DNA of 64,000 bases from an uncultured Bacteroidales bacterium. GTDB taxonomy: Bacteria > Hydrothermota > 32-111. The position numbers and the translations under genes were made by a program. Below the pieces are notes generated by a model, which saw only the letters and a program-made list of their open reading frames with translations, was not told where the DNA came from and made no database searches. The DNA lies in the NCBI GenBank assembly GCA_964544145.1, contig CAZJAT010000004.1, positions 16,177-80,176 of the forward strand, written 5' to 3'. Of this stretch, positions 32,835-58,596 are shown one piece after another; position 1 is the first letter of the stretch; every line of letters begins with the position of its first letter.

Positions 32835-32847
32835 TTGTCTCCCCCTT

Positions 32848-34738: not shown

Positions 34739-34799
34739 TTTTTTCTTACTTTTTTTGCTGTGTCTCTGCTGCCTGTAGAGTATTTCAGTATGATTTGAA

Positions 34800-35612
34800 T
34801 TATAGTATTTCAATTTCTTTCTCCAGAGTAATTCCAAATGTATTGAAAACTGTTTTCTCAATTTTATCTGTAAGTTCAAGAAAATCACTATATCTTCCAT
34901 TGCCTTTATTTATTATAAAATTTGTATGTTTCTCTGATATACATATATCATTGATACAGAAACCGCGCATATGAACTTTGTCTATCAATTCCCAAGCATT
35001 ATAATCCTTATTCTTATAGACAGAACCGAGAGACCTCTCATTCATCGGCTGGATTTTATTACGGGTTTTCATTATAGAGTCAATGTTTTTTCTTATAGAA
35101 TGTTTGTCTATATTTTTCAGTAATAAAACACAGGATATTAAAATACTGTTAATGGAAGATTTTCTATATGAGAAATCAATATCATTTCTTTTAAGGATTC
35201 CATCTGATGCATGCACCTCATATATGAAATCTGATAGATTGATATTACCAGCTCCTGCATTCATTTTAATCATTCCTCCGATTGAGCCGGGGATTGGGAA
35301 TAGCTGTTCAAGACCGCCTATATTTATTTCAGCCAGTTTGTTTATAGCAGATTTGATTGTCATTTCACAGGGAATGCTTACAAGGGGACCGCTGGGGTCA
35401 ATGATCTCTATTGTATTAGCTGTTTGAATCCTTGCTAAATTCAAATTACGGGCATTTTCTGTAAATAGTATATTGGATGCATTGCCTATTACCTTAATAT
35501 TATCGGCATAATTCATATCATCTGTATTTTCCATTATTGTCATTCTGTCTATTACCGGCCCGATACCAATATATGATATGGAAGCCAGGTCAAAATTTTC
35601 AATGATTTGCAT
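34800..35612 (-). CDS. murB: UDP-N-acetylenolpyruvoylglucosamine reductase
   Basis: The N-terminal region looks like the MurB FAD-binding domain (KVIGNASNILF). Its position in the dcw cluster supports the call. At 270 aa it is short for MurB. Confidence 0.65.
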   Translation of the reverse strand: MQIIENFDLASISYIGIGPVIDRMTIMENTDDMNYADNIKVIGNASNILFTENARNLNLARIQTANTIEIIDPSGPLVSIPCEMTIKSAINKLAEINIGGLEQLFPIPGSIGGMIKMNAGAGNINLSDFIYEVHASDGILKRNDIDFSYRKSSINSILISCVLLLKNIDKHSIRKNIDSIMKTRNKIQPMNERSLGSVYKNKDYNAWELIDKVHMRGFCINDICISEKHTNFIINKGNGRYSDFLELTDKIEKTVFNTFGITLEKEIEIL

Positions 35613-36987: not shown

Positions 36988-37996
36988 AATGCAGTGTCTC
37001 TTTTATGATTTTATCAGTATTCTCTATAATCATAGTATCACTTTTATTATTAATATATTTCTCAATCAGAGAGATGATTCTTTCCTTGCTGAGACTGTTT
37101 TCATTCAGTGATGTTATATTGTGAGTTTTTTTCACATAATAATCTATATTCTTCTGCTGATGATTATCGGCAGCACTGGGTAATGGTATGAATATTGCAG
37201 GTTTTCCTGAATTGTAAATTTCAGCCAGGGACATAGCTCCTGCTCGGGATATAATAATATCAGCCTGATAATACAGTGAGCCCATATCTTCGGTGAAGGG
37301 AATCATTCTTACATATTCATTTTCCGTGACTTCATTCTTCAGCTTTGAACCGACAATTAAAATATTATATTTATCAATATCATTTAGAATTTCATAAATA
37401 TGCTTAAACATATTAAATGCTCCTTGAGATCCACCGCAAATTAGTATTACAGGCCTTGTGTTATTAAAGATGAGCTTGCCATTACTGTGAGGTTCTGCAT
37501 GTGAGCCTATAAAATGCCCTGTGAAAACATTTCTGTTTTTATTTATACCCCTGTATGGGACATCAAATCCTGTGAAAATATATTTTGCAGCAAGTGAAAA
37601 GAATCTGATATTTTTACCTGCAATAATATCCTGTTCCATCAGTATAATAGGTCTTGCCGTTATAAATGCGGCTAAACCTGCAGAGAATGACATATAAGAG
37701 CCCATAAGGAATACAGTGTCTATTCGGTTTCGCAAAATATATGCAATTACAATGAAAACAGAGAGGAAAATATTTAATACATCATTAAAGGATCCATACC
37801 CCTTATACTTAAGAATAAGCGGTTTGATATCTCTGCTTTCATATATTCTCTTTTCAATGTCTCTATTTCCGCAGACAAAGAATATACTGCTATTACTGAA
37901 TATTTTACTCAGCTCCAAAGCAGGTATTATATGGCCTCCTGTGCCTCCGGCGGCAATTAGAATATTCTCATGCATATTTTTTCTCATTTTTTGCAA
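36980..37996 (-). CDS. murG: UDP-GlcNAc:undecaprenyl-PP-MurNAc-pentapeptide GlcNAc transferase
   Basis: ILIAAGGTGGHIIPALEL is the MurG N-terminal signature. Confidence 0.85.
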   Translation of the reverse strand: MQKMRKNMHENILIAAGGTGGHIIPALELSKIFSNSSIFFVCGNRDIEKRIYESRDIKPLILKYKGYGSFNDVLNIFLSVFIVIAYILRNRIDTVFLMGSYMSFSAGLAAFITARPIILMEQDIIAGKNIRFFSLAAKYIFTGFDVPYRGINKNRNVFTGHFIGSHAEPHSNGKLIFNNTRPVILICGGSQGAFNMFKHIYEILNDIDKYNILIVGSKLKNEVTENEYVRMIPFTEDMGSLYYQADIIISRAGAMSLAEIYNSGKPAIFIPLPSAADNHQQKNIDYYVKKTHNITSLNENSLSKERIISLIEKYINNKSDTMIIENTDKIIKETLHYV

Positions 37997-39047
37997 TATT
38001 AATTAATAATCCCACAGCAATCATATTCATCAGAATGGAAGAACCGCCATAGGATATAAATGGTAATCCTAATCCTGTTGTGGGCAATAATTTCAATGAT
38101 ATGGCTATATGAATAAATGCTTTCATAACGATGAAAAAAGTAATGCCATATGCCAACATCTTATTAAATGGAGAATAAGCTCTTTTTGCTACATTCATGC
38201 CTGTATAGAAGAAAAAGAAAAATACCAGAATAATAATCAGTCCGCCTAAAAATCCGAGTTCCTCTCCTATTATAGAGAATATAAAATCGGAATATGCTTC
38301 CGGTATATAGAGAAGTTTTAATTTCCCCATGCCCAGGCCTTCTCCGAGAAAACCTCCATTCCCCATTGCAAGTATAGATGCTTGTGTCTGCTGTGATACG
38401 GGACTCTTGTTGACAAAAGACATCAATCGTGCCATTGCATGGGAATATCTCGGTATCATTGCAGCCCCAATACCGGCAATTGAAAGCACGGGAATGAGGA
38501 TATATTTTTTTGATATATCAGACATGAGAAACATGATAAATACGAAAAATCCCATAAGAAGTGCTGAAGATATGTTTGGTTCAACAAATATCAGACCCAA
38601 AACCGATACAATCATGATAAATATTACTGCAAACTGCTTAGGCGAATTATTCCTTATATCAGGAATTATTCTTGCAAGGAATATAATCATAGAAATCTCA
38701 GCCAGCTCGGACGGCTGAAATGTAAAAATCAAGATTTTAAACCATCTCCTTGCACCATTTATTTCCTTTCCCGCAAGCAGTACAGTGAAGAGAAGTATGA
38801 TTGATATTATAATAAGTAAAGGAGCAATGCGTTTTAAGAACTGAAGGGGAATAGATTTGGCTATAAAGAGACATACTATGCCGATAATTATAAAAATAAA
38901 CTGCCTTCTGAAAAAGTAGAATGGGTCATTATTGAAATTTTTATTCTGATAAGCGATAAAAGAGGATGAACTAAACAGCATAATCATACCAATAAGCAGA
39001 AGTATCATCACTATAATAAATATCTGCTGTTCTGTTTTCATTCCCAT
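37968..39047 (-). CDS. ftsW: SEDS-family peptidoglycan glycosyltransferase FtsW
   Basis: It is a polytopic membrane protein with the conserved FtsW/RodA layout. It lies between murD and murG. Confidence 0.75.
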   Translation of the reverse strand: MGMKTEQQIFIIVMILLLIGMIMLFSSSSFIAYQNKNFNNDPFYFFRRQFIFIIIGIVCLFIAKSIPLQFLKRIAPLLIIISIILLFTVLLAGKEINGARRWFKILIFTFQPSELAEISMIIFLARIIPDIRNNSPKQFAVIFIMIVSVLGLIFVEPNISSALLMGFFVFIMFLMSDISKKYILIPVLSIAGIGAAMIPRYSHAMARLMSFVNKSPVSQQTQASILAMGNGGFLGEGLGMGKLKLLYIPEAYSDFIFSIIGEELGFLGGLIIILVFFFFFYTGMNVAKRAYSPFNKMLAYGITFFIVMKAFIHIAISLKLLPTTGLGLPFISYGGSSILMNMIAVGLLINIAKNEKKYA

Positions 39048-40360
39048 TCTTTTATTTCCTCTTTAAATTTATTTCCTCTATCTGCAAAATCAGTGAACAT
39101 GTCAAATGATGCAAATCCCGGTGAGAAATTAATGGGCGCATCACTTACAGTGATTGAAAAAGCTTTTTTCACAGCATCATGAAGAGACTCAGCTTCAAAG
39201 ATGTTTTTATAATTTTTACTTATTAAATATTCTTTGACTACAGAAGTCGATTCTCCTATGAGAATAGCATTATGAGTATTCTTAATGACTGCATCAATAA
39301 TTATATCAATATCAAAATCTTTATTCCTTCCGCCCAGAATAACGGTTTGTCTCCCAGAGAGGGATTCTACCGAATTTTTGAAAGCTACGGGATTAGTGCA
39401 CATGGAATTATTGTAGATCCGGTGATTGTTTATGGTGCCGATATATTCCATCCTGTGGGGCATTGAAACGAGAGAATTTATATATTGCTGCGTATTTGAT
39501 TCGTTTTCATTAATTATATTGAATACGGCAATAGCCTGCATAAGATTTTCAATATTATGATTTCCCGGCAGCTTGAATTTAGTAATGTCAATTCTATCTT
39601 TACCAAAGTGTATGGAATTTCCTGAGTAGAAAATATCAGCATTTGTTTTCAATAATGATGTATATACAGTATTGGAATGTAAATTAACAGCATTAAGTAT
39701 ATCATCATCCATATTCAGCACAGCATAATCAGATTTATCCTGATTTCGGAAAATATTCATTTTGCAGTTTATATATGTTTCCATATCACCATGTCTGTTT
39801 AAGTGGTCAGGTGAGATATTTGTTATTACACCTATATGAGGATTGAATTTATCAACAGTTTCCAGTTGAAATGAGGATAATTCACATATTATTATTTCGG
39901 GTGAATGATTTAAGACAATTTCGCTCAGAGGTGTCCCGGGGCTTATGTTGCCGCCCAATTCAACATCTTTACCTGATGATTTCAATAATTGATAAGTGAG
40001 AAACGCAGTTGTTGATTTACCATTCGTACCTGTAATTCCAATAAAAACAGCATTGCTGAAATTGTAGGCAAATTCTATTTCAGGTATTACATGAATACCG
40101 GATTCAGATGCTTTTTGAATGAATGTATTGGAATACGGGATACCCGGACTTGTCACAATTATGTCATTATTGAGTATATTATCAGAATGCAGTGTTTCAT
40201 ATTCTGCATTGATTGATTTCATTATATTTCTCTCTTCAGCATTATAATCTGAATCAGAGGAAACAAACACATGGCCGCCTTTGCTGAATGCAAGTTTTGC
40301 AGCAGCTTGACCGCTTTTCTTAAATCCGAGAATGCATACTTGTTTGTTCCTGATATCCAT
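39038..40360 (-). CDS. murD: UDP-N-acetylmuramoylalanine--D-glutamate ligase
   Basis: AVFIGITGTNGKSTTA is the Mur ligase P-loop. Its position follows mraY. Confidence 0.85.
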   Translation of the reverse strand: MDIRNKQVCILGFKKSGQAAAKLAFSKGGHVFVSSDSDYNAEERNIMKSINAEYETLHSDNILNNDIIVTSPGIPYSNTFIQKASESGIHVIPEIEFAYNFSNAVFIGITGTNGKSTTAFLTYQLLKSSGKDVELGGNISPGTPLSEIVLNHSPEIIICELSSFQLETVDKFNPHIGVITNISPDHLNRHGDMETYINCKMNIFRNQDKSDYAVLNMDDDILNAVNLHSNTVYTSLLKTNADIFYSGNSIHFGKDRIDITKFKLPGNHNIENLMQAIAVFNIINENESNTQQYINSLVSMPHRMEYIGTINNHRIYNNSMCTNPVAFKNSVESLSGRQTVILGGRNKDFDIDIIIDAVIKNTHNAILIGESTSVVKEYLISKNYKNIFEAESLHDAVKKAFSITVSDAPINFSPGFASFDMFTDFADRGNKFKEEIKEWE

Positions 40361-40361
40361 T

Positions 40362-41432
40362 TTACCTCAATTTTAATGTACTTAATGCAAGAATGCCGAA
40401 TAATATTGAAATTATCCAGAATCTGACAACTATCTTAGATTCCGGAATACCCTTTAATTCAAATGTATGGTGAATCGGGGCCATAGGGAATATTCTCTTT
40501 TTGGTTAATTTAAAAGATATGACCTGAAGAACAACAGACATTGTTTCAATAGCAAACATACCACCTGCAATAAGCAGGAGAATCTCCTGTTTCAATAGCA
40601 CAGCAGATGCGCCCAGAATACCGCCTAATGTCAATGAACCCGTATCACCCATGAATATTTCTGCCGGATGTGTGTTATACCAGAGAAAACCCAGTGATGA
40701 TGCAGCAGCAGCAGCCAAATATACTGAAATTTCCCCACTGCCGGGAATATACTTCATATTAAGATATGTGCAAAATACAGCATTGCCCGATACATAGGCA
40801 ATTGCTGTGAAAACCGTGAATATTATTCCAAGCATGCCGGCTGCAAGGCCATCAAGTCCATCGGATAAATTAACGGAATTTGAAGCTACAGTCAGAACAA
40901 GCATAACAAAGGGAATAAAGAATACAGACAGATTAATCATCATATTCTTTAGCAGAATTATATTTGTCATTGTCCATATTCCATTATATGCAGGGCTATT
41001 GAGAACAAATAATGAAACAACAGTCCCCAAAGCCAATTGTGTAATAAGCTTATACCTCGGTATAACACCTGTTTTATTCTTTTTTTTCAGAATATCATCA
41101 ATCAGCCCCAATATACCTAAAGTGAGAGTAATTAAAATAAGCAAAATTATGAATGTATTGCTGAGATTTGCCCAAAGCAAAACACCTGTCAATATACTTA
41201 AAATGATTATTATACCGCCCATTGTCGGCGTTCCCGCTTTACTCATATGACGTTCGGGTCCATCACTCCTGATTGTTTCTCTTATATTGAGTTTTTTAAT
41301 AATTCTGATAATGTATTTTCCGACAAAGAAAGAAAAAAGCAGTGAGCTGACGGCTGCCATTGCAGCCCTGAATGTAATGTATGTAAATAATGCAATATTA
41401 TCTGATAAAGGCAATAATAATTTATAAAGCAT
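40362..41432 (-). CDS. mraY: phospho-N-acetylmuramoyl-pentapeptide transferase
   Basis: It is a polytopic membrane protein with the MraY loops NLSDGLDGLA and HHTFE. Confidence 0.85.
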   Translation of the reverse strand: MLYKLLLPLSDNIALFTYITFRAAMAAVSSLLFSFFVGKYIIRIIKKLNIRETIRSDGPERHMSKAGTPTMGGIIIILSILTGVLLWANLSNTFIILLILITLTLGILGLIDDILKKKNKTGVIPRYKLITQLALGTVVSLFVLNSPAYNGIWTMTNIILLKNMMINLSVFFIPFVMLVLTVASNSVNLSDGLDGLAAGMLGIIFTVFTAIAYVSGNAVFCTYLNMKYIPGSGEISVYLAAAAASSLGFLWYNTHPAEIFMGDTGSLTLGGILGASAVLLKQEILLLIAGGMFAIETMSVVLQVISFKLTKKRIFPMAPIHHTFELKGIPESKIVVRFWIISILFGILALSTLKLR

Positions 41433-41434
41433 AA

Positions 41435-42748
41435 TTACATATCCTTTAAGTGATTAATAATTTCTTCCATAGCCATTCCTCTGCTTCCTTTGATTAATAT
41501 TACATCGTTTTTTTCCAGTTTAATGGATACATAATCGGATAATTCATCTTTGCTGTTAAAATGTCTGTCCCTGTAATCCCGTATATAATTCTCACTGAAT
41601 TTACCAATAGCCCATATCATATCAATGTTTTTTTCATTTGCATATAATGCAATTTCTTTATGCAATTCCGCACTCTGTTTTCCCAATTCAAGCATATCAC
41701 CGAGAATTGCAATTTTCCTGCCTTTAAATCTTGACAATACATCTAATGCATTTTTCATTGATGCAGGGGATGCATTATATGTGTCATCAATCATTAGTAT
41801 ATCGCCTGTCTGTGAAATATTCAGCCTGCTGTGAGGCATTGAAAAGTTTTTCAATGCATATTCAATATTTACCGGAACATCCTTATATTCATTCTTAAAT
41901 GCATATAGAGCCAGAATCATCTGTAAAGCTCCTGAGCCGGGAATGTTTATTTTATATTCATTGCCATTGATGACGAGTTCTGCATTATCCTGATTTAATT
42001 TAAATGAGCAAGGATGATAATCATTGTCAGGGCCTATGCCGAATGTTCTATATCTGACATGACCGGGTATATGTTTCAATACCATTCTATTATCACCATT
42101 TATAAGAAGAACAGAGGATGTATTCATTGATTCAAGGATTTCCATTTTTGCTTCAATCAAATCTTCAAATGATGCAAACATTCCAATATGTGAATCATTT
42201 ATTGTTGTTATTATTACTGCATGCGGCTTTATCATTTGAGAGATTTCATTTAATTCTCCTTTTTGATTCATGCCTGCTTCCAATACTGCAAATTCGGTCT
42301 CTTTTTCTATTCTCAGTATATTCTGTGTCACACCTATAAGATTGTTTGTATTGCCTTTTGTCTTTATTTTATTCTTGCTTTCTATTGCATCATAGAGCAG
42401 ATCTTTTAAAGAGGTTTTCCCCGTAGAACCGGTTATTGCAATATTCATTGAATTCATTTGAGATGCATAATGAGCTGCAATTTTGTTATATGCAGACAAT
42501 GTATTATTGACAAGAACATAGGGATAATCTGATTGTATGTTTTTTTCAGAAATAAAGCATGTGCAGCCGTTTTTCAATGCACTATCAATAAAATCATGGC
42601 CATCATAATGAACTCCCTTTATCGGTATAAATAGGGTGTCAATGGATTCCTGTCTTGAATCAGTGCATATATTCCTTATGCATATATCGTTATTATTCAG
42701 AGTGCCGCCTGTTATACGGGCAATTGAGGATAATTGATAATCAATCAT
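41435..42748 (-). CDS. murF: UDP-MurNAc-tripeptide--D-Ala-D-Ala ligase
   Basis: The Mur ligase P-loop is IAITGSTGKTS. Confidence 0.8.
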   Translation of the reverse strand: MIDYQLSSIARITGGTLNNNDICIRNICTDSRQESIDTLFIPIKGVHYDGHDFIDSALKNGCTCFISEKNIQSDYPYVLVNNTLSAYNKIAAHYASQMNSMNIAITGSTGKTSLKDLLYDAIESKNKIKTKGNTNNLIGVTQNILRIEKETEFAVLEAGMNQKGELNEISQMIKPHAVIITTINDSHIGMFASFEDLIEAKMEILESMNTSSVLLINGDNRMVLKHIPGHVRYRTFGIGPDNDYHPCSFKLNQDNAELVINGNEYKINIPGSGALQMILALYAFKNEYKDVPVNIEYALKNFSMPHSRLNISQTGDILMIDDTYNASPASMKNALDVLSRFKGRKIAILGDMLELGKQSAELHKEIALYANEKNIDMIWAIGKFSENYIRDYRDRHFNSKDELSDYVSIKLEKNDVILIKGSRGMAMEEIINHLKDM

Positions 42749-44188
42749 TTACAGATACTTCCTTATTTCTTCGCTATCATCAAAATGGTGTTTTTTATTA
42801 TTAATTATCTGATATGTCTCATGTCCTTTTCCTGCAATAACTACAGTATCACCGTGTTTTGCCATACGCATAGCCATCTCTATTGCTTTTTTTCTGTTTA
42901 ATTCAATCATATAGTTTCTTTCTTTTATTCCGGAGAGAATGTGATTGATAATACTGGCCGGATTTTCAAATCTTGGATTATCTGTAGTTATAATAACAGA
43001 ATCTGAATAATGGGAAGCTATTTTACCCATAATAGGTCTTTTTTCCCTGTCTCTGTCGCCTCCGCATCCGAATACGGTTATAAGATTGCCCTCAGTAAGA
43101 CGTTTGGCTGTTTTTAAAACCCTTTCAAGTGCGTCAGGCGTATGTGCATAATCCACTATTCCGGTGACACCTTTGTCGGATGAGAATGTTTCAAAGCGTC
43201 CGGGAACAACAAATGTACTATTATTGATAATGGAACATAATTTATCCGCATCAAATCCCATATAAAAAGCGCTGAGAAACGCAAAACATGTATTATATAT
43301 ATTATAATCGCCAATAATGTTGATGCTAAGCTCAAATGATTTATTTAATTCTTCATTCTTTAGAACAAAAGAGCTGCCTGTGATAGAAATACGTTTAATA
43401 TCAATTGTCCATTGAGCTTTACGATTTCTGAGTCCCAATGAATGATAAATAGTGTATGCATCTTCAAATTGTTTATGATATTTATCATCTGCATTAACTA
43501 TTGTGTGTGCATCTTCCTTCATCATGCCGAACAGTTTTAATTTGGATAGCATATAGTCATCCATTGTTTTGTGATAATCCATATGGTCCTGGGTGAGATT
43601 TGTGAATACTGCGCTGTCAAACAGAATGCCATCAACTCTTTTCTGTTTTAATCCGTGAGAACTTATCTCCATAATAATATATTTGACATTTTCATTCTTC
43701 ATTTGTTCAAAAAGCCTGTATATTGTCAGAGAGTCAGGTGTGGTATTTTTGGCTTCTATGATGCTGTCGCCGATCATATGCTTGATTGTGCCGATTAAAC
43801 CCGTTTTGCCGTATTTATCCAATATGCCCTTGAGTATATATGAAGTGGTTGTTTTGCCGTTTGTACCTGTAATGCCGATTATTCGGAAATCATTATTATT
43901 AAAACCGTAAAAGCGTTTAGCTATTATTGCAGTGGTCTTGGCGATTTGGTCTGTCACCAATTGCGTAGAATCAACATTCATATGTTCCTGTTCACTAATC
44001 ACTGCAATAGCACCATTTTTAACCGCTTCTTCTATATGGGTATTACCATCTTCAATACTTCCTTTAATTGCTATAAAAATATATCCCTGTTTTATTTCTC
44101 TGGAATCAGAACTTATACCGCAAATAATATGATCAGAGAAATGAACTTTTTTAAGTGAAATGCCTTCAATTAAATGACTCAATTTCAT
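42749..44188 (-). CDS. murE: UDP-MurNAc-L-Ala-D-Glu--2,6-diaminopimelate (or Lys) ligase
   Basis: IGITGTNGKTTTSYIL is present. The longest ORF extends to 44293, inside ftsI. The internal ATG at 44188 gives an ATGA overlap with the ftsI stop and is the more likely start. Confidence 0.8.
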   Translation of the reverse strand: MKLSHLIEGISLKKVHFSDHIICGISSDSREIKQGYIFIAIKGSIEDGNTHIEEAVKNGAIAVISEQEHMNVDSTQLVTDQIAKTTAIIAKRFYGFNNNDFRIIGITGTNGKTTTSYILKGILDKYGKTGLIGTIKHMIGDSIIEAKNTTPDSLTIYRLFEQMKNENVKYIIMEISSHGLKQKRVDGILFDSAVFTNLTQDHMDYHKTMDDYMLSKLKLFGMMKEDAHTIVNADDKYHKQFEDAYTIYHSLGLRNRKAQWTIDIKRISITGSSFVLKNEELNKSFELSINIIGDYNIYNTCFAFLSAFYMGFDADKLCSIINNSTFVVPGRFETFSSDKGVTGIVDYAHTPDALERVLKTAKRLTEGNLITVFGCGGDRDREKRPIMGKIASHYSDSVIITTDNPRFENPASIINHILSGIKERNYMIELNRKKAIEMAMRMAKHGDTVVIAGKGHETYQIINNKKHHFDDSEEIRKYL

Positions 44189-45948
44189 GTCTGAATGTCC
44201 TTTGTGGGTTTTATTAAGTGTCTGTATTGCTTCATTCCCAGAAGTCCCTGTGCAATATCTCTGAATAATGGTGCTGCAACCTCTGATCCCCAATAAACAC
44301 CACGCGGCTCATCAACCGTTACTATCATTATTATCTCGGGATTTTCTGCAGGGAAATAACCGGCAAAAGATGAAACAAATTGTCCTTTCTGATATCCGCC
44401 TGATGATGAACTTTTCTCAGCAGTACCTGTTTTACCAGCTATTGTTATACCCGGTATGGATGCCTTTATTCCTGTACCGCATAGAACAACATCAATGAGC
44501 ATTTCATTCAATTTGTCTGCTGTGGATTCTTTTAGGATACGTTTCTTTGAAGAATTTGAGTAATTTTCCTTATCAACTGTTTTTATGATTGTCGGTTTAA
44601 CATAATAACCTTTATTTGCAACAATATTGTATGCGGCAATCATCTGTAATGCAGTTACGCTAACCCCTTGACCAAAACAGATATTTGCCTGATGAATTGG
44701 TATCCACTCCCTTTCATTGAGAAGAAGACCTTTCTGTTCACCCGGTAATCCGATATTTATCCGCTTATTGATACCCATTGCATTAATCATTACATAGAGG
44801 AGACGTTTTCCCACTTTATTGCCAATATTAACAAAACCGATATTGCTAGATTCAATAAAACTCTCTTTGAATGTAAGCTGACCACTTTCATGAGCATCAG
44901 TAATTATATGACCATTTATAATGAGTGAATCCTCGCCAGCTTTTTTTACAATATCTTGCTCATCAATAACATTATATTCAAGGGCAGCAGCTGCAGTGAT
45001 AAGTTTGAATATAGATCCCGGTTCATAGAGCGAAAGAATGGAATAATTCTTACATGCAGATGGATCCCCTCTGCCAAGCAGATTGGATTCATATGAGGGA
45101 TAGTTTGCCATTGCGAGAATTTCTCCTGTCTTCACATTCATAATGATGACATTCCCGCTTTTTGCTTTATACTTATCAACATAATTCTGCAGATTGAAAT
45201 ATGCAATCTGCTGTATCTTTGAATCAAGGGTAAGTACTATAGGAGCTCCTTTTTGAGCCAATTTGTCCTTATATGATGGATGCTTAAATATCTTTCCATT
45301 GGGTTTCCTCTGATATTGGATATATCCGTTCTCTCCCTTCAGCTGATCATCAAATCCGTATTCAAGACCTTCAAGTCCTGAATAATCAATACCGACAAAT
45401 CCTATTACACCGGAAAATACCTCTGCATTATTGTAATAGCGGATTTTCTCCCTTTTTATTATGATTGCATCGGAATGGATGTCTGATATCATTGCCACAT
45501 ATGATTGCGGAATATTGTAATAGAGGGGAATATAATCAAAGGATTCATTGAGTTTACTTATTATCTCCTGATAGGGCATCAATCCTGTATTGGCAATCTT
45601 ATGAGCAAGACCTTCTGTATCCTTAATCATCTTTTTTGTGATATACAGATTATCACATAATATATTTGTTGCAATTATGTTTCCCTGTCTATCCATAATA
45701 TCGCCTCTCTCAGCTCTATCTATCATAATAAGGCGATTTTTCTGCAGGCAAATCTTTTCAATTCTCTTATTATCAATCAATTGAATTGTAATCATTTTTG
45801 CAATAATTATAGCTGTAAACACAGTCAACATGATAACAGTTATGGCGATTTTTTTATTAATTTTCTTGGAGTATTGCTGTATATTCTTTATCATCATCTC
45901 AGGGTGCATAATCATCTCCAGTAGGGAAGTGCATGGATAATGAATCAA
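44185..45948 (-). CDS. ftsI: peptidoglycan D,D-transpeptidase FtsI (class B PBP)
   Basis: It has an N-terminal TM and the motifs SIFK (SxxK), SSN and KTGTA. The true start is probably one of the ATGs at 45894-45915 rather than 45948, which overlaps ftsL. Confidence 0.8.
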   Translation of the reverse strand: MIHYPCTSLLEMIMHPEMMIKNIQQYSKKINKKIAITVIMLTVFTAIIIAKMITIQLIDNKRIEKICLQKNRLIMIDRAERGDIMDRQGNIIATNILCDNLYITKKMIKDTEGLAHKIANTGLMPYQEIISKLNESFDYIPLYYNIPQSYVAMISDIHSDAIIIKREKIRYYNNAEVFSGVIGFVGIDYSGLEGLEYGFDDQLKGENGYIQYQRKPNGKIFKHPSYKDKLAQKGAPIVLTLDSKIQQIAYFNLQNYVDKYKAKSGNVIIMNVKTGEILAMANYPSYESNLLGRGDPSACKNYSILSLYEPGSIFKLITAAAALEYNVIDEQDIVKKAGEDSLIINGHIITDAHESGQLTFKESFIESSNIGFVNIGNKVGKRLLYVMINAMGINKRINIGLPGEQKGLLLNEREWIPIHQANICFGQGVSVTALQMIAAYNIVANKGYYVKPTIIKTVDKENYSNSSKKRILKESTADKLNEMLIDVVLCGTGIKASIPGITIAGKTGTAEKSSSSGGYQKGQFVSSFAGYFPAENPEIIMIVTVDEPRGVYWGSEVAAPLFRDIAQGLLGMKQYRHLIKPTKDIQT

Positions 45949-46147
45949 CAGCTACCCTATGTAATCTCTCATATGACATAAGGTGATTTATTTCAAGGGA
46001 GAGTTTCATATATCTGCCTTTTGCACTTTCATATTCCTTTTCATGTTCATTTATCAGCATTGTAAGCTGTAATACATAGAATCTGGTCCAGGTTATCATA
46101 AAGAGAATTATTGCAATAATTAAAATATTCATTGCCTGTTTCTTCAT
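45899..46147 (-). CDS. ftsL: cell division protein FtsL-like (TM plus coiled coil)
   Basis: The small bitopic protein MKKQAMNILIIAIILFMITW... lies between rsmH and ftsI. The start is chosen to give an ATGA overlap with rsmH. Confidence 0.55.
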   Translation of the reverse strand: MKKQAMNILIIAIILFMITWTRFYVLQLTMLINEHEKEYESAKGRYMKLSLEINHLMSYERLHRVAVDSLSMHFPTGDDYAP

Positions 46148-46992
46148 GCAATCCTCTCTGCGCATCTGAGTTTAGCACTTCTTGCACGCTTATTACGTTT
46201 GACTTCCTCATAATGAGGTTTAACGGTTTTTTTATTGATCAATATGAAATCATCATTATTCTTAAAAAAATATTTGACAATTCTATCCTCAAGCGAATGA
46301 TAGGATATTACAACAATTCTGCCGTTTCCTTTCAGCAATTGAGGTGCTTTTTCCAGAAATTTCTCAAGACTGCCTAATTCATCATTGATAAATATACGTA
46401 ATGCCTGGAATACCCTGCGCAAAGCAAATTTGACACCCCTGCCTCTGCATCCTTCAATAATTGCATTCTTCAAGTCAAATGTTGTATTCATTTTGTTGTG
46501 CATTGCTGCTTTCTTAATTGCAATAGCAATATCAGCGGCATTATGCTGTTCCGAATAACGCTCAATAATTGAAGCAATCTTCTCAGCAGGGACATTGTGA
46601 AGAAAATCAATGAGTGACAGATTCTCTGTATTATTCATCCTCATATCAAGAGGTGCATTGAAACGAAATGAAAAACCTCTGTCAGCATTATCAATCTGAT
46701 ATGAAGAAACACCCAAATCAAGCAATATCCCGTCAAATGTTATTTCAGAATCAAAATCTGCAAAATTCATATGCATAATCTCAATATTGGATGATGTGAA
46801 GTGGTCATTCAGGTAATCAATAGCCTGAGCATCCCTGTCAATCATAATCAATCGACCTTCTTTTTCTAATCGTTTAAAAATCTCTACAGAGTGTCCGCCA
46901 AAGCCGGCTGTACAGTCAAGATAAATACCGTTTTTTCTGATATTGAGAAAATCAATTGTATCATTCAATAATACAGGTATATGAATGTTCAT
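46144..46992 (-). CDS. rsmH: 16S rRNA (cytosine1402-N4)-methyltransferase
   Basis: The N-terminal HIPVLLNDTIDFL ... GIYLDCTAGFGGHS is the MraW/RsmH signature. Confidence 0.85.
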   Translation of the reverse strand: MNIHIPVLLNDTIDFLNIRKNGIYLDCTAGFGGHSVEIFKRLEKEGRLIMIDRDAQAIDYLNDHFTSSNIEIMHMNFADFDSEITFDGILLDLGVSSYQIDNADRGFSFRFNAPLDMRMNNTENLSLIDFLHNVPAEKIASIIERYSEQHNAADIAIAIKKAAMHNKMNTTFDLKNAIIEGCRGRGVKFALRRVFQALRIFINDELGSLEKFLEKAPQLLKGNGRIVVISYHSLEDRIVKYFFKNNDDFILINKKTVKPHYEEVKRNKRARSAKLRCAERIA

Positions 46993-47336
46993 ATGAACAT
47001 TTTGCCGGATATTGCATGCTTTGCAGACAGCAAATCCGGAGTAATATCATAAAAAAAACGATAATGAACCAAACTGAAGATAGCTATTATATAGGGGTCT
47101 GTACAAATGATTTTCAAATCGCGGCCATTGATCTTTAATTGCTCTCTCATATGCTCCAGTCTATGAGCAAATCTGTAATGCATATGATTTATATGTCTCA
47201 GATCTATGATAACGGATTTTTCTGAGCACATCAGCTGTCTATTAAGACGTGTCATATCAGCAGAGTCATGTGCGTCAATTGTTCCCTTGATGCTGAGCAG
47301 GAAGTATCTGTTTTTTTCACAAATACTGTAATGCAT
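46989..47336 (-). CDS. STAS-domain (anti-sigma-factor-antagonist-like) protein inserted between mraZ and rsmH
   Basis: At 115 aa it fits the SpoIIAA/STAS layout: YFLLSIKGTIDAHDSADMTRLNRQL then SVIIDLRHINHMHYRFAHRL then LKINGRDLKII. No Ser or Thr sits at the usual phospho-site. Its stop overlaps the rsmH start (ATGA). Its start lies 1 nt after the mraZ stop. Confidence 0.55.
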   Translation of the reverse strand: MHYSICEKNRYFLLSIKGTIDAHDSADMTRLNRQLMCSEKSVIIDLRHINHMHYRFAHRLEHMREQLKINGRDLKIICTDPYIIAIFSLVHYRFFYDITPDLLSAKHAISGKMFI

Positions 47337-47337
47337 T

Positions 47338-47775
47338 TTATAGTCCTATAGATTTGAGGGTTTTCTTGTGCTTTTCTTCTATTGTGCGCATATTCTTATC
47401 AAATTCTTCGGGTTTCCATAACTCAATTCTGTCCATTGCTCCAATGATGAGGACTTCATCCTCAATACCCGCTTTCTTCATCAGATTTGCAGGGATCTTG
47501 ATTCTTCCATGAGAATCTGCCTGTGTATCCTCTGCTGATGAATATATATAGTTTTTGATTATTGTTTTATCCTCTTCATTTAATGTTTCCATAAGCTTCT
47601 GCTCAAAAGCCCTGAATGCATCATCAGGATATAGAATGAGATGATTCTCTGATGATGGTATTACAGTAAAGTCATTGGTCATGATCTGTTTTCTCAATTT
47701 AGAGGGAATAATCACTCTTCCCTTGTTATCTATCTTGAACCCGTAGGTTCCTTTGAATGAATATCTGCTCTCCAT
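47338..47775 (-). CDS. mraZ: transcriptional regulator MraZ
   Basis: MESRYSFKGTYGFKIDNKGRVIIPSKLR and a second DxxGR-type repeat (DSHGRIKIP) are present. The longest ORF starts with GTG at 47805. The ATG at 47775 is favoured. Confidence 0.8.
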   Translation of the reverse strand: MESRYSFKGTYGFKIDNKGRVIIPSKLRKQIMTNDFTVIPSSENHLILYPDDAFRAFEQKLMETLNEEDKTIIKNYIYSSAEDTQADSHGRIKIPANLMKKAGIEDEVLIIGAMDRIELWKPEEFDKNMRTIEEKHKKTLKSIGL

Positions 47776-47834
47776 ATTACTCCACTTTGTTCCATTTTTT
47801 ACCACATTCTACTAATTTTAACCCATTATGTCAA
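47776..47834 (-). promoter_or_regulatory. mraZ/dcw promoter (TTGACA-N17-TAGAAT) with three 10-bp-phased (A/G)TGG(A/T) direct repeats (candidate MraZ operator)
   Basis: The minus strand reads cTTGACAtaatgggttaaaattagTAGAATgtggtaaaaaatggaacaaagtggagtaatATG. GTGGT, ATGGA and GTGGA are spaced exactly 10 nt apart. Confidence 0.45.
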
Positions 47835-52645: not shown

Positions 52646-54307
52646 TTGAGTACAATGATTATTATGGGAAATAGAAAGAGGTTAATCTATAGTTTATTTA
52701 CTATTGCACTAATTGCCATTATTCTTATAGGGATAAATCAGATCTTCATCAGTGACTATATATTCCGTTCTATTATGAGGAATCATAATAATACCATGAA
52801 ATCAGTGCTCAGTATATCAAAGACAGGTATATATCAATATCTCAGTTCATTAAAGTCGAATATTGAAACATTGACGGATCAGAATGATATAATGGATTTC
52901 AATGAGAATGGCAAGCATATTCTGGAACGGTTTCAATTAAAGTATAGAGATGTTTTTTCCAATGTTACCCGTATTGATGAAAAAGGCAATATACAGTATA
53001 CTGTTCCATTTGATGAAAAAGCAGTCGGGCGCAATGTGCTCTTTCAGGAACATAATAAGAAATTATTCCGTTTGAAAATCCCTATTATTTCAGCTCCTTT
53101 TGATGCTGTTCAGGGGTATAAAGCAATTGCAATTGCCATACCTGTTTTCAGGGATAGTATCATGATAGGTTCTGTAACAGGATTAATTCCATTTGATGTA
53201 ATATGGGATCTTTACATTTCACGCATAAATATTATGGAAAAGTCATTATTTATTGTATGTGATAATGATGGAAATATTATATATGGAATTGGAGGGGAAT
53301 GGAATGGCAATATTGATAATTTGAAGGATATAGAGTATTCATATACATTTTCACCTGATACAGGTGATTGCCCATTCATTTCCGAAGAGATTGTCTTTAT
53401 ACCTGAATGGAAGGGTGAATATGCTGTTATTGCTGACAAGATGGATATAAATGGCAATACATGGCATATCATATCATTGACATCTACTGATGATCTTAAA
53501 TTAAGGGGTATTAATATAGCCAGTACTCAGAGGGTTTTCACATATATTATCATTATTTTATTTGTACTTTTATCTGCAATTTTTCTAATTATATACAGTA
53601 TGGAATCAGAGAGAATGAGTTTGAAGATGAGAAATGCAATGGATATGAGTATTAAGATGGGCAAAGAAAAACAATTTTTTGAAGATGTGCTCAACAATTT
53701 ATTGGCAATGAAGCAGATTCTGATAATAATTATTGATGCTCACGGCGGGATTCATTTTATATCAAGACAGTATAAATATATCAATGATAATTTTTATAAA
53801 TTGATTGACAATAAACAAGCAGAAAAAATACGAAAAAATATTGAATTTTCACGCATTGCCAAGCAGGGATTTATGTCTATATTGAATCTTGGCAATGATA
53901 AAAGTAAAAACAGGTTTTTATTTTCAATTACCCCTGTATCAATGAATGAAGATGAGTATTCTGTTCTGATTGGTTTCCCTTATAATGAAAAAATGCCCCT
54001 TGCGACAAATGATATGAGTATTCATATCTTAGAGTGGTTCAATAGCGGCAATCCTAAAGCACTTTTAGATACATCCGGCAATATCATTATAGCAAATAAT
54101 ATGTTTACTTCTATGTTCCGACAAAACACTGCTTCTGTATGGGGAAATGAGAGCAAAAGGGTTATTAATGCCATAAAATGTTCAGTTAATGATATTCAGG
54201 ATATTACATTGAATATTCAATATGCCGGTAAGGGTATTATATTGAGAATATCTCCTATTATCAGTCCAATGCTGAAGGTCAATTATATTGCTGTTGATAT
54301 TCAGTAA
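52646..54307 (+). CDS. membrane sensor-like protein (TM - periplasmic Cache-like domain - TM - cytoplasmic PAS-like region) with no recognisable output domain
   Basis: TM1 is LIYSLFTIALIAIILIGINQIF. A soluble segment of about 260 aa follows. TM2 is VFTYIIIILFVLLSAIFLIIY. A cytoplasmic domain of about 230 aa follows. I see no HATPase, GGDEF or MCP motifs. Confidence 0.35.
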   Translation: MSTMIIMGNRKRLIYSLFTIALIAIILIGINQIFISDYIFRSIMRNHNNTMKSVLSISKTGIYQYLSSLKSNIETLTDQNDIMDFNENGKHILERFQLKYRDVFSNVTRIDEKGNIQYTVPFDEKAVGRNVLFQEHNKKLFRLKIPIISAPFDAVQGYKAIAIAIPVFRDSIMIGSVTGLIPFDVIWDLYISRINIMEKSLFIVCDNDGNIIYGIGGEWNGNIDNLKDIEYSYTFSPDTGDCPFISEEIVFIPEWKGEYAVIADKMDINGNTWHIISLTSTDDLKLRGINIASTQRVFTYIIIILFVLLSAIFLIIYSMESERMSLKMRNAMDMSIKMGKEKQFFEDVLNNLLAMKQILIIIIDAHGGIHFISRQYKYINDNFYKLIDNKQAEKIRKNIEFSRIAKQGFMSILNLGNDKSKNRFLFSITPVSMNEDEYSVLIGFPYNEKMPLATNDMSIHILEWFNSGNPKALLDTSGNIIIANNMFTSMFRQNTASVWGNESKRVINAIKCSVNDIQDITLNIQYAGKGIILRISPIISPMLKVNYIAVDIQ

Positions 54308-55335: not shown

Positions 55336-55457
55336 AAGAATAGGGCTATGAGGAAAGTATTCAATCTAAACGAATTTATGGAATATCATTTTAATAGAGA
55401 TAATAGATAATTGTAAGAAAGAAATCAATTAATAGGGTGCAAATATTTTCATATGGA

Positions 55458-55486
55458 TTGACAAACATGCAAAAATTACATATAAT
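55458..55486 (+). promoter_or_regulatory. consensus sigma70 promoter TTGACA-N17-TATAAT
   Basis: TTGACA is at 55458-55463 and TATAAT at 55481-55486. It lies about 110 nt upstream of the 55595 ATG. Confidence 0.5.
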
Positions 55487-55543
55487 GATATGTATAAAAT
55501 ATGATAAATTAAATAATAGTGTGATATACACAAATTGTTAAAC

Positions 55544-55559
55544 TGGCACGCAAATTGCT
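55544..55559 (+). promoter_or_regulatory. perfect sigma54 (RpoN) -24/-12 promoter element TGGCACG-N4-TTGCT
   Basis: The sequence is ctGGCACGcaaaTTGCTa. It is positioned about 25-35 nt upstream of a strong SD (GGGAGGT at 55584-55590) and the ATG at 55595. Confidence 0.55.
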
Positions 55560-55594
55560 ATTTTAATTTGTAAATATATTACCGGGAGGTAAGG

Positions 55595-57559
55595 ATGAAA
55601 AGACTAATTGTCTTTCTGATAATTATTTTAACAGGATTGAGTATATTTTCGCAGAATTTTGCGAATATGGAAGTATTTATTTGGGATAATGATGATGGCA
55701 GGGCATTCCGCAATCCTGATAATCCTGAGAAATTCATTGGATTTGAAACAAATCTTATTAAGGCATTTGAAGATGTAGGATTTGATACTGATAATAAAAA
55801 CTTGACAATAGGCAGTGATTTCCCTGCTGACCCTTCCAGATATGCGGCGATTTTCATTATCAGCGGTGACAGACCATATACTGATCAATTATTCAAACCT
55901 GAAACTGTTGAAAGGATGATCAATTATTTGGAAAACTGGCATGGCTGTCTATATATAGAGGGTAATAATTATATTCACTGGTTTGCAGTCAATGGATATT
56001 CAGATTTTATGAAAAAGTATTTTAATATTGTATTATTGAATCCCGGAGATGGTTATGCAGGGTATGATACAATAAAAACAGATACATCCTGCACAATATT
56101 CCGCTCATATGAGATTGTATATCCGGAAGGCACTGCCCTTGATTTTAGTGTGGATGTATTCGGTGCTGCTGAACCGGATGATACATTCTATCATTCAGTC
56201 ATGGTCTATGATGCAAAGCAGAAACTCTATAAATCTACTGCTGCTGCATATACACCGCCTGATGATAAAAAGGAAATCGGTTCCAAATTTAAGACATTTA
56301 TGTCTGCTGTTGATTTTGGCGGATATTCAGCGCCTCACAGAAAATATGAGCAATTACCTGATTCAATTGAGAACCAATTAATTAGGACAGCATATCTGAG
56401 GGATATTATGCGTCTATTTTCTATAGGTAAGATATTGGTAATTAATCACACAGATAAGATAGATAATGACAGAATTGCGCAAGCATTGCAGAAGAATCGT
56501 CTTGAATTTGATTATATATATGTTGAACCGGGAAAGAGTGGTCCCTCATTTGATACATACAGTAAATATTCGGGTGTGATTTGGTATTCAATGAATTGTG
56601 ATATGGGAAAAAATATCAATTCATTTGATATTGATCAATTATCCATATATATGGATTATGGAGGAGCATTACTGCTCTCCGGGGAGGATATTGCTGAACA
56701 GATAGGTAATCCTGCCAAGGATGTTGAGATAGCGTTTTTGTCACATTATTTTGGTATTGACTATGTTGGTGAGAATCTGAATGACAAACAGCATAAAGCT
56801 GAACCTTCAAACATATATGGTCCTATGGGCGGTGTGGATATTTCGGTAGCACCTTCAGGTGATCTGTTCAATATTTGGAGATTCTCTGATGCTGAGCCTG
56901 CATTCTATTATAAATCCACAACAAAGGCTCCATTGCCATCAGCAGCGATTAATGATGCACCCGGATTTGAAGCTGCATTCTTTGCATTCCCTGTTGAGAA
57001 TATCATTGATAATGGTGCATTGGAATACTTTACTGCAATTACTGCAGTTGACTTCTTTGATTTTGATACAATGTTTGCCATTCATACAAATATTGAAGAG
57101 ATCAATGTATCATATACAAAGAATATCAATGATATAACATTCAATATTACATTGAATAATCCCGGTAATGGTGTATTGAAATTACAGAGGAATAATGATA
57201 TAGAAGAAACAGTGATAACATCTGATAATCAGACAATATATAAAATGACCAGCAATTATATCAGCGGTCTCTATGTAATTGAGTACAGTGTTGACGGAGC
57301 ATTGCAGACAGCTTTTTCAGTGAATATATCAGGCAGCGGAGAAACAGGTGAAAGGGTATATATGCTTAATAATATAATGTATATTGAATCAGAATCGGAT
57401 AATAGTGAAGTGGAGATATTTGATATAACAGGACAGCATATTGATAATATTACAGTTAATACAAAAACAGTATGGAATAGATATAATATAATGCCTTCAG
57501 GCATATATTTTATACGATTTAATGATAGCGGAAGTGTTCATAAAATATTGAAATACTGA
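55595..57559 (+). CDS. secreted 654-aa protein with a T9SS C-terminal sorting domain (function unknown)
   Basis: The signal peptide is MKRLIVFLIIILTGLSIFSQ. The C-terminal VEIFDITGQHI and GIYFIRFNDSGSVHKILKY look like CTD motifs D and E. Confidence 0.5.
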   Translation: MKRLIVFLIIILTGLSIFSQNFANMEVFIWDNDDGRAFRNPDNPEKFIGFETNLIKAFEDVGFDTDNKNLTIGSDFPADPSRYAAIFIISGDRPYTDQLFKPETVERMINYLENWHGCLYIEGNNYIHWFAVNGYSDFMKKYFNIVLLNPGDGYAGYDTIKTDTSCTIFRSYEIVYPEGTALDFSVDVFGAAEPDDTFYHSVMVYDAKQKLYKSTAAAYTPPDDKKEIGSKFKTFMSAVDFGGYSAPHRKYEQLPDSIENQLIRTAYLRDIMRLFSIGKILVINHTDKIDNDRIAQALQKNRLEFDYIYVEPGKSGPSFDTYSKYSGVIWYSMNCDMGKNINSFDIDQLSIYMDYGGALLLSGEDIAEQIGNPAKDVEIAFLSHYFGIDYVGENLNDKQHKAEPSNIYGPMGGVDISVAPSGDLFNIWRFSDAEPAFYYKSTTKAPLPSAAINDAPGFEAAFFAFPVENIIDNGALEYFTAITAVDFFDFDTMFAIHTNIEEINVSYTKNINDITFNITLNNPGNGVLKLQRNNDIEETVITSDNQTIYKMTSNYISGLYVIEYSVDGALQTAFSVNISGSGETGERVYMLNNIMYIESESDNSEVEIFDITGQHIDNITVNTKTVWNRYNIMPSGIYFIRFNDSGSVHKILKY

Positions 57560-57564
57560 ATACA

Positions 57565-58596
57565 TTATTGATTGGAAATGGCCCTGAAGAGATATTCTTT
57601 TTTCAGGGCTATTTTTTTGATACCCCTGTAAATATCCATTGAATCAAGAAGACCTTTCTCATACCAAGTGAGAATAGAATCTACCATTGGCTCATATAAT
57701 GTGTGATCCATGAGAATGAACATATCATTCCCGGCTTTTAGAGCATGAAATAGTGTATTAAACGGATCTTCATAGGCCTTGCATGCAATATCATCTGTTA
57801 GAATAATACTATTTACATTATCAAGCAATGATACTATTTTACCGGACATTACAGCAGGTATTGAATCAAGGAAAGGATAGATGAGATTGGATACCATTAT
57901 AAAATCAGCATATTGAGATAGATGCATAAATATTGAATATTCGGTTAAAAAATGCATCATATCACCTTTATATGTATGTATATCAGCATCAGAATTGTAG
58001 TAGGTATTGCCATAGCCGGGAAAATGTTTGAGTGTTGCCAGTATTCTATTGCTCTTATGATATGAGATAAAATATTTGGCAAATAATTCAATGGAATCAG
58101 GATCCCTGGATATATTCCTCTTAATCCTGTTCATATTTGCTCCATTTAATGTGCTGTAATCAATAACAGGAGCAAAATTAACATTAATGTGTGAGAGAGT
58201 CATCAGATTGCACTGATAATTCAATATTGAATCAATGACATTTATATGCATATGCGCCAGTTCATACATAGTGGGAAAATCCGATATAAAATGATATCTG
58301 TTAACCTTTCCTCCTTCCTGATCAATGCCGATAAATGGGGGAATGGAAAATTGAGCAAGTTTTGTATCATATTCTCTGTTAAGCATTTTTTCCAATACCT
58401 TAATGGATGGTATAATACCTCCAGGCTCAGTTTTAAATGATAAATTCTGAGGTGCATAGACAAAGAATCTCTGTCCGATAATATCTCTGAGTGAAAATGA
58501 CTTAATATACCTGTTTAATTGTGATGTCTTTATAGTATATGTAAATGCAGAGACTGCAAATAGAAAACACATGAAAATACAAATGATTTTTTTCAT
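57565..58596 (-). CDS. glycoside hydrolase family 3 N-terminal domain protein (beta-N-acetylglucosaminidase NagZ-like)
   Basis: ATLKHFPGYGNT matches the KHFPGHG motif of the GH3 catalytic region. A signal peptide is present. It is 343 aa. Confidence 0.65.
   Translation of the reverse strand: MKKIICIFMCFLFAVSAFTYTIKTSQLNRYIKSFSLRDIIGQRFFVYAPQNLSFKTEPGGIIPSIKVLEKMLNREYDTKLAQFSIPPFIGIDQEGGKVNRYHFISDFPTMYELAHMHINVIDSILNYQCNLMTLSHINVNFAPVIDYSTLNGANMNRIKRNISRDPDSIELFAKYFISYHKSNRILATLKHFPGYGNTYYNSDADIHTYKGDMMHFLTEYSIFMHLSQYADFIMVSNLIYPFLDSIPAVMSGKIVSLLDNVNSIILTDDIACKAYEDPFNTLFHALKAGNDMFILMDHTLYEPMVDSILTWYEKGLLDSMDIYRGIKKIALKKEYLFRAISNQ
57581..57618 (+). terminator. rho-independent terminator-like hairpin (8-bp stem GCCCTGAA/TTCAGGGC, 13-nt loop) followed by TATTTTTTT
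   Basis: It lies 22 nt after the stop of the 55595 gene. It overlaps the last codons of the convergent GH3 gene. Confidence 0.45.

Follow-up and report, generated by a model that had tools for sequence, protein, structure and literature searches.

A probable composite sigma-54/sigma-70 promoter in front of an exported type IX secretion cargo gene from a WOR-3-type bacterium

A 64-kb stretch of DNA from an uncultured WOR-3-type bacterium (contig CAZJAT010000004.1; this whole stretch, with 34% G+C, is referred to as the window) contains, at positions 55438-55597, what is probably the composite promoter of a gene for an exported cargo protein of the type IX secretion system (T9SS). As judged from conserved letters and distances, the region would combine a sigma-54 core promoter, palindromes that are candidate activator sites, and an interleaved sigma-70-type promoter. 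It is very probable that the -24/-12 element at its centre is a functional sigma-54 promoter, and reasonably likely that the palindromes form its enhancer, bound by an enhancer-binding protein (EBP). A switch between the two promoters, in the style of E. coli glnAp1/glnAp2, is proposed by analogy as a tentative model. From the arrangement of the elements we infer the binding of sigma-54 and of the EBP, the use and the occlusion of the sigma-70 promoter, and the existence of an inducing signal. The elements read in the window are the following.

55438-55451, no strand: distal candidate activator site (UAS1), TGCAAATATTTTCA, an imperfect 14-nt palindrome with arms at 55438-55446 and 55443-55451 (repeat search)
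55458-55463, + strand: -35 hexamer TTGACA of the upstream sigma-70-type promoter (direct reading)
55468-55480, no strand: proximal candidate activator site (UAS2), TGCAA-AAA-TTACA (TGCAAAAATTACA), wholly within the sigma-70 spacer (55464-55480)
55481-55486, + strand: -10 hexamer TATAAT of the same sigma-70-type promoter, preceded by the 17-nt spacer (direct reading)
55487-55543, no strand: A+T-rich intervening DNA, the presumed looping region, unconserved and 46-77 nt long in the alignment
55544-55559, + strand: sigma-54 -24/-12 element TGGCACGCAAATTGCT, composed of TGGCACG (55544-55550), CAAA and TTGCT (55555-55559)
55584-55589, + strand: Shine-Dalgarno (SD) sequence GGGAGG
55595-55597, + strand: ATG of the T9SS cargo gene
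55595-57559, + strand: the regulated cargo gene (654 aa), with a putative signal sequence, two domains of the GATase1-like/ThuA-like (DUF4159/GIFT-type) kind, Ig-like domains and, at the C-terminus, a T9SS type A sorting domain

Direct reading places both promoters, the SD sequence and the ATG where the original prediction had put them. In the -24/-12 element, which matches the consensus at 12/12 positions, the GG lies at 55545-55546 and the GC at 55557-55558, and transcription is predicted to start near 55570; the predicted start of the sigma-70-type promoter, near 55493, is about 77 bp further upstream. The distance from the GC to the ATG is 36 nt in the window, 29-41 nt in most related loci and 59 in one of them (L013), and the leader that follows the predicted sigma-54 start is 18-30 nt long and contains the SD sequence. 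The window has a single match to TGGCACG-N4-TTGCW and 100 dinucleotide shuffles of it have none, 0.004 matches being expected from base composition per 64 kb on both strands. The rarity first claimed for this match thus stands, and the figure given for it, a chance of about 1%, was conservative. The remaining sigma-54-like matches in the window are all intragenic and carry two mismatches, and their number (10, against 3.9 from shuffles) is not clearly above chance. The perfect sigma-70 string TTGACA-N17-TATAAT is expected 0.05 times per window and is seen twice; its second copy (24755-24783, + strand) lies within the end of a holA-like open reading frame (ORF; 23917-24867), and the gene that follows (24877) begins about 90 nt further on.

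The main evidence for the sigma-54 promoter comes from comparison. Upstream DNA was compared for every family member that could be reached, which gave 12 distinct loci including the window; a first contig scan with a single protein as query had found no relatives. The proteins of these loci show 34-54% identity to the window protein (in L019, 42% over a partial match), and the nearest relatives, at 45-54%, are metagenomic, the named records being 'candidate division WOR-3' metagenome-assembled genomes (MAGs). Upstream of all 12 distinct family members, from WOR-3-type MAGs, a GG-N10-GC element of the form wTGGYAYR-N4-TTGCT is found. All 12 loci agree in the letters G, G, A, T, G and C and in the exact spacing, the neighbouring positions being restricted to Y, Y and R. 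The resulting consensus agrees with the canonical YTGGCACGR-N3-TTGCW, reportedly that of Barrios et al. 1999; unlike the generic consensus, the lineage variant favours TGGYAT and an A before TTGC. The -24/-12 sites are listed by locus.

Window: CTGGCACGCAAATTGCT
L002: TTGGCACATACATTGCT
L007: ATGGCATAGGCATTGCT
L022: ATGGCATGTCAATTGCT
L004: TTGGTATAAATATTGCG
L006: TTGGTATAATTATTGCT
L009: ATGGTATGATTATTGCT
L023: ATGGTATAAAAATTGCT
L013: TAGGTATGATAATTGCT
L010: TAGGCATATTCTTTGCT
L011: AAGGCATAAAATATGCT
L019: TAGGTATGTTATTTGCT

In L010, L011 and L019 the family gene is second in an operon and the element precedes the first gene, which encodes a protein of 279-282 aa, likewise with a sorting domain. 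Since an exact sigma-54 signature would not be maintained over such divergence without the factor that reads it, this conservation is indirect evidence that these organisms use sigma-54 together with an EBP.

The element is also specific to its position. In 285.6 kb of sequence (the window plus the loci), TGGYAY-N5-TTGCW has 11 matches, 10 of which lie upstream of the cargo family, 29-41 nt before the family start codons, several of these ten being the same locus taken twice. About one match is expected by chance and one stray was seen, TGGTATGAATATTGCA (37184-37199, + strand), which lies antisense within murG without an upstream palindrome; it fits the sigma-54 pattern of the lineage and is most likely a chance match. 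Furthermore, a position weight matrix (PWM) built from the 12 sites found a single further site scoring at least 15.5 bits in 332 kb.

This further site, CTGGCATATTATTTGCT (L025:17850(-), 17850-17834), scores 20.2 bits, a level (at least 20 bits) at which 0.08 sites are expected in 332 kb. The final 11.8 kb of the window are also found, with 4 mismatches, in the contig L025, so the site belongs to the same population and lies about 6 kb beyond the window end. It is found 44 nt before an ATG (17789), with the SD sequence AAAGGAGG in between, and the gene that follows encodes a 1270-aa protein beginning MRKVLFTLL, with Peptidase_M6 and Por_Secre_tail domains, that is, an M6 protease and T9SS cargo; the annotated start of this gene (17915, TTG) is probably too far upstream. 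An exact TGCAAATATTGCA palindrome is present at L025 18014-18026, 178 nt upstream of CTGGCATATTATTTGCT, which is nine helical turns further than in the distant loci described below. As the M6 promoter also has the element, at least two T9SS cargo genes of this genome carry it.

L025:17789-18026, - strand: M6 promoter region, at about 69980-70215 in window numbering, past the window end

Upstream inverted repeats, which the original prediction had recommended looking for, were found in every locus as palindromes of the type TGCAA-N3-TTGCA, 65-125 nt upstream of the -24 GG. In the window, UAS1 is centred some 125 nt before the predicted start of sigma-54 transcription and ends 7 nt short of the -35 hexamer, whilst UAS2, 30 bp from UAS1, lies 77 nt upstream of the -24 GG and about 96 nt before the predicted start. 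The GTGCAAATATTTTC block of UAS1 is shared by L002, L007 and L022, and in L004 the corresponding position holds a perfect TGCAAATATTGCA. Motifs of the TGCA(A/G) type are present upstream in all loci, two of them 28-30 bp apart in 8 loci; in the clade of the window such pairs lie, with the same 28-30 bp between them, at -95 to -125 and -65 to -96 from the GG. In five distant loci (L010, L011, L013, L019 and L023), a palindrome is found 82-84 nt upstream of the GG, and these single or proximal sites are perfect or near-perfect versions of TGCAA-N3-TTGCA, for which the exact form is expected, by arithmetic from composition, about 1e-6 times per position. With the M6 promoter included, palindrome and -24/-12 element occur together in 13/13 promoters. 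The spacer between the -24/-12 block and the upstream blocks is unalignable and of variable length among the orthologues. The individual palindromes are as follows.

L004, L010 and the M6 promoter: TGCAAATATTGCA
L023: TGCAAAATTTGCA
L011: TGCAAATGTTGCA
L019: TGCAATTATTGCA
L013: CGCAAATTTTGCA

A 13-nt palindrome, single or paired about three helical turns apart and some 90-150 nt before the start, is the classical enhancer layout of an AAA+ activator of sigma-54, and it is because of this layout that the palindromes are read as activator sites. The promoter resembles generic sigma-54 promoters that depend on bacterial EBPs in its GG/GC, exact spacing, extended consensus, upstream palindrome and A+T-rich intervening DNA; no IHF site was identified. 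An inverted repeat around the -24/-12 element (55524-55536 with 55565-55577) was also considered and was dropped, as it is, by eye, seemingly unconserved in the orthologues.

The same palindromes could be understood differently, the sigma-54 promoter being real and the palindromes binding a separate conventional regulator such as a repressor of the sigma-70 promoter, with the true activator sites elsewhere or an activator working from solution. The proximal palindrome does sit in a classical operator position, the sigma-70 spacer; nevertheless, in the distant loci the palindrome is kept 82-84 nt from the GG without any recognisable sigma-70 promoter, which would be pointless for a sigma-70 repressor. 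The M6 palindrome, 178 nt upstream instead of about 83 nt, fits a separate regulator better, and at 13 nt the palindrome is short and a candidate activator site only; set against this are the joint presence of palindrome and -24/-12 element in all 13 promoters, and a distance of about 90-150 nt from the predicted start, with pairs 30 bp apart, which is typical of EBPs. Altogether, a separate regulator is considered rather unlikely, and the reading of the palindromes as a sigma-54 enhancer is preferred.

Regarding the sigma-70-type promoter, its distribution is narrower. Seven loci, those of the window's clade, have a -35/-10 pair that matches 10-12 of the 12 consensus positions, the spacer measuring 17 nt in each of them; TATAAT is identical in 7/7, and the -35 hexamer varies (TTGACA in 4 loci, and TTGAAA, TCGATA and ATGAAA). 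In the five distant loci no sigma-70-like promoter above 9/12, the chance level in A+T-rich DNA, was found, so that the -24/-12 element is the sole recognisable promoter there. Since the sigma-70 pair is absent from these loci, the palindrome with the -24/-12 element would be the universal module, probably the ancestral one, and the sigma-70 promoter appears to be a clade-specific addition built around the enhancer. Dual control by sigma-70 and sigma-54, as first put forward, is sustained in that both elements are conserved (7 and 12 loci, respectively). Two independent inputs are less likely: the palindromes lie across the sigma-70 promoter, so that a single activator probably governs both promoters as alternatives. 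In addition, the upstream mnmA gene is followed by no intrinsic terminator 3' of it on the + strand, and read-through from mnmA into the cargo gene is possible.

Beyond the 12 loci, more distant homologues (L012, L015 and L029, including a TA06 MAG) have a plain TTGACA-N17-TAnAAT, and their upstream regions (homologues at 5001, 5001 and 132, respectively) contain no -24/-12 element; therefore, sigma-54 control would be lineage-restricted. L017, which is outside the count of 12, has TGGCAC-N5-TTGTA upstream, possibly a degenerate site. L001 (a 4.8-kb ENA scaffold; region 1-190) matches the window from the sigma-70 spacer on, and the DNA upstream of that point is unrelated and G+C-rich; the assembly is probably chimeric, joined exactly at the promoter. 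In L004, an IS200/IS605-type Y1 transposase gene (2895-3746) is found between mnmA and the promoter, with the palindromes and both promoters intact.

The five distant loci, having the block and the fixed-distance palindrome without a recognisable sigma-70 promoter, also speak against the idea that only the sigma-70 promoter is used, the TGG...TTGC block and the palindromes being ordinary operators or part of the mRNA leader and the likeness to sigma-54 a coincidence. This idea could draw on the perfect sigma-70 promoter of the window (12/12, conserved in 7 loci), on the position of the -24/-12 block within the leader of about 100 nt of the sigma-70 transcript, and on rpoN not being demonstrated in this lineage. 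Nevertheless, the conserved positions are exactly those which define sigma-54 promoters (GG, GC, the 10-nt spacing, and the flanking T, CA and TT) and not those of an arbitrary operator, and comparison of the leader with Rfam gave no family match, nor is there a conserved structure in this variable leader. Exclusive use of the sigma-70 promoter is thus judged improbable. As for consensus-like hexamers arising by chance, 34% G+C does make TATAAT- and TTGACA-like strings common (7 weak sigma-70-like matches in 500 nt against 4.1 expected), and yet the rarity of the exact sigma-54 match, its conservation in 12 loci and its occurrence elsewhere in 332 kb only at the M6 cargo promoter leave chance with next to no probability, the comparative data having already refuted it.

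On the preferred reading of a sigma-54 promoter with its enhancer, RNA polymerase with sigma-54 would sit at the -24/-12 element as a closed complex, and an open complex would form only upon contact by an AAA+ EBP through DNA looping. Most likely, the activator would occupy UAS1 (55438-55451) and UAS2 (55468-55480), which lie some 125 and 96 nt, respectively, before the predicted start. With the activator off its sites, basal transcription from the sigma-70 promoter would take place; with the activator bound, the sigma-70 promoter would be blocked and strong sigma-54 transcription fired. This switch model is proposed because the geometry is that of E. coli glnAp1/glnAp2. There, as also in glnHp1/p2, one gene has both promoters, the sigma-70 one being the upstream one, and in glnA two NtrC sites about 30 bp apart, some 100-140 nt before the sigma-54 start, overlap the sigma-70 promoter, as the two candidate sites of the window do. 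The NtrC palindrome is TGCACC-N5-GGTGCA, different from the 13-nt TGCAA-N3-TTGCA found here. In glnA, the sigma-70 promoter is 115 bp upstream of the sigma-54 promoter, compared with about 77 bp in the window, and is blocked by NtrC-P, which activates the downstream one (PMC1865078). Unlike in glnA, the sigma-70 partner is present in one clade of the cargo family only, and the presumed target is an exported surface protein instead of a nitrogen-assimilation enzyme.

Several observations weigh against the composite promoter as proposed. Neither rpoN nor a sigma-54 activator was seen in the 64-kb window, in the next 8 kb of the same strain or in the related loci, which amount to about 270 kb. 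In the window, in agreement with the original prediction, a Pfam scan of the ORFs of at least 100 aa taken as genes gave no rpoN or EBP, and GAFTGA, ESELFGH, the Walker A motif of EBPs and the RpoN box were all absent from the six reading frames; six-frame motif searches of the related loci were negative as well. Such absence is expected, since a genome has only one or a few copies of genes of this kind. Most of the orthologous sites have TGGTAT or TGGCAT and not TGGCAC, and the four closest loci share long identical blocks, which makes them not fully independent. Moreover, the two palindromes of the window (TGCAAATATTTTCA and TGCAAAAATTACA) are imperfect, and helical phasing of the enhancer sites relative to the GG is loose, with residues spread over about 5.5 of 10.5 bp, and so only suggestive. 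Finally, it is from position that we infer the activity of the sigma-70 promoter and its occlusion.

As regards known systems, the components are all of a known kind: the -24/-12 element, the palindromic enhancer, the tandem sigma-70/sigma-54 arrangement (glnA, glnH) and a T9SS operon run by sigma-54. The implied newness of a sigma-54-regulated secretion substrate is consequently reduced, since there is a precedent in Flavobacterium psychrophilum, where the sigma-54 motif SM4 and a second promoter precede the remFG-sprCDBF operon for a T9SS-secreted surface protein (an adhesin), and the sigma-54 regulon is enriched in envelope and exported proteins (PMC9723704). The likeness is in a -24/-12 element and a second promoter before a T9SS cargo gene. 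The differences are that F. psychrophilum belongs to the Bacteroidota, that its starts were mapped and its promoters studied by reporter mutagenesis, that its second promoter is an alternative-sigma motif (SM5), and that no enhancer site is defined for it in the text consulted, as against a WOR-3-type bacterium and purely comparative evidence here. The novelty of the present case lies in its host lineage, the uncultured WOR-3, in its target family and in its enhancer motif (TGCAA-N3-TTGCA), as well as in the hint that several T9SS cargo genes form a small regulon. Dedicated transcriptional control tied to type IX secretion is also seen in PorXY-SigP of Porphyromonas gingivalis, in which an extracytoplasmic function (ECF) sigma factor and a two-component system act on T9SS machinery genes, and which is not known to involve a -24/-12 element or an AAA+ activator.

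WOR-3 is a widespread uncultured phylum of the FCB group, and we know of nothing reported on its gene regulation. In a literature search, no papers came up on WOR-3 in combination with type IX secretion, sigma-54 or rpoN, and WOR-3 is not mentioned in a 2025 survey of sigma-54 regulons (PMC12316311). In this context, no new mechanism is revealed, rather a familiar kind of switch in an unstudied phylum. The module provides a motif pair (palindrome plus -24/-12) for reading the whole regulon from MAGs, and hints that T9SS export of surface proteins and proteases is induced by a signal and not constitutive. It also agrees with the proposed role of sigma-54 in controlling the bacterial exterior, and carries the Flavobacterium observation beyond the Bacteroidota. 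A phylum-wide WOR-3 sigma-54 regulon for T9SS-exported proteins may be envisaged with some reserve, comprising the GATase1-like protein, its small sorting-domain partner and the M6 protease, with one EBP recognising TGCAA-N3-TTGCA and a sigma-70/sigma-54 toggle in one clade. If this were true, the uncultured phylum would have its first defined regulatory circuit, through which one could approach the signal that triggers surface remodelling or secretion.

Concerning the regulated gene, the prediction of a T9SS cargo protein was borne out, as its C-terminus passes the TIGR04183 cutoff (31.5 bits, cutoff 23); against Pfam PF18962 it scores 23.6 bits, under the gathering score of 27, and PF18962 is found at E <=1 in 9/13 family members. 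The N-terminus, MKRLIVFLIIILTGLSIFSQNF, has the charged, hydrophobic and polar layout usual for a Sec signal peptide and was judged by that layout. The protein body of the relatives gives weak matches to DUF4159 and IFT52-GIFT. An AlphaFold model of the cargo protein (pLDDT 71, pTM 0.70) resembles in Foldseek, with low TM-scores, the GATase1-like/ThuA-like modules of GH42, Agd3, PelA and OST48, followed by Ig-like domains. Two further genes of the window belong to the secretion context.

18490-22977, + strand: PorU-like T9SS sortase of the C25 family, 1495 aa (NF033707, 199 bits, E 9e-59, under the equivalog cutoff of 420; Peptidase_C25)
22974-23939, + strand: PorV2-like gene (NF052325, 31.8 bits, a weak match)

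With these two genes in the window, a secretion pathway for the cargo is plausible; the T9SS core genes porK/L/M/N and sov were not seen within the 64 kb. A second C25-family giant (4282-7674, + strand, 1130 aa) ends in a T9SS sorting domain. The PorU-like, PorV2-like and 1130-aa C25 proteins all score well under the equivalog cutoffs of NCBIfam, a sign that the T9SS of this phylum could be divergent.

The predicted leader of the cargo gene may also fold around its SD sequence.

55579-55592, + strand: hairpin UUACC-GGGA-GGUAA enclosing the SD sequence, from the minimum free energy (MFE) fold of the predicted leader

In MFE folds of the predicted leaders the SD region is paired in 7/8 loci, the arms differing by lineage, with weak energies and non-significant z-scores. 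The hairpin is found in the window, L002, L004, L007, L009, L010 and L019, with the AUG enclosed as well in L010 and L019, and the arm pairs are UUACC/GGUAA, AUACU/GGUAU, AUGAUAUU/GGUAUCAU and UUAUGAGAUU/GGUCUCAUGA. It could be a translational brake or chance.

Among the neighbouring genes, a 553-aa membrane protein (52646-54307, + strand) has a dCache-type sensor domain and a C-terminal half that is PAS-like by eye, without a recognisable output domain. It adjoins the cargo gene in L002, where it is directly divergent, and in L004, and a 508-aa neighbour without annotation in L007 is possibly the same protein; its place beside the cargo gene may reflect synteny only, or else a role in the signalling input. 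In the distant loci nrdD-nrdG are found upstream in place of mnmA and the sensor gene. Downstream, a GH3 gene (NagZ-like beta-N-acetylhexosaminidase; 57565-58596, - strand) converges on the cargo gene with about 5 nt between the stops, and such a convergent GH3 gene is present in nearly every locus, in the same position in L004, L010, L011, L022 and L023. Further away in the window, a STAS-domain (anti-sigma-antagonist-like) gene (46989-47336, - strand) separates mraZ from rsmH at the start of the dcw cluster (31698-47805), which is otherwise of the standard type.

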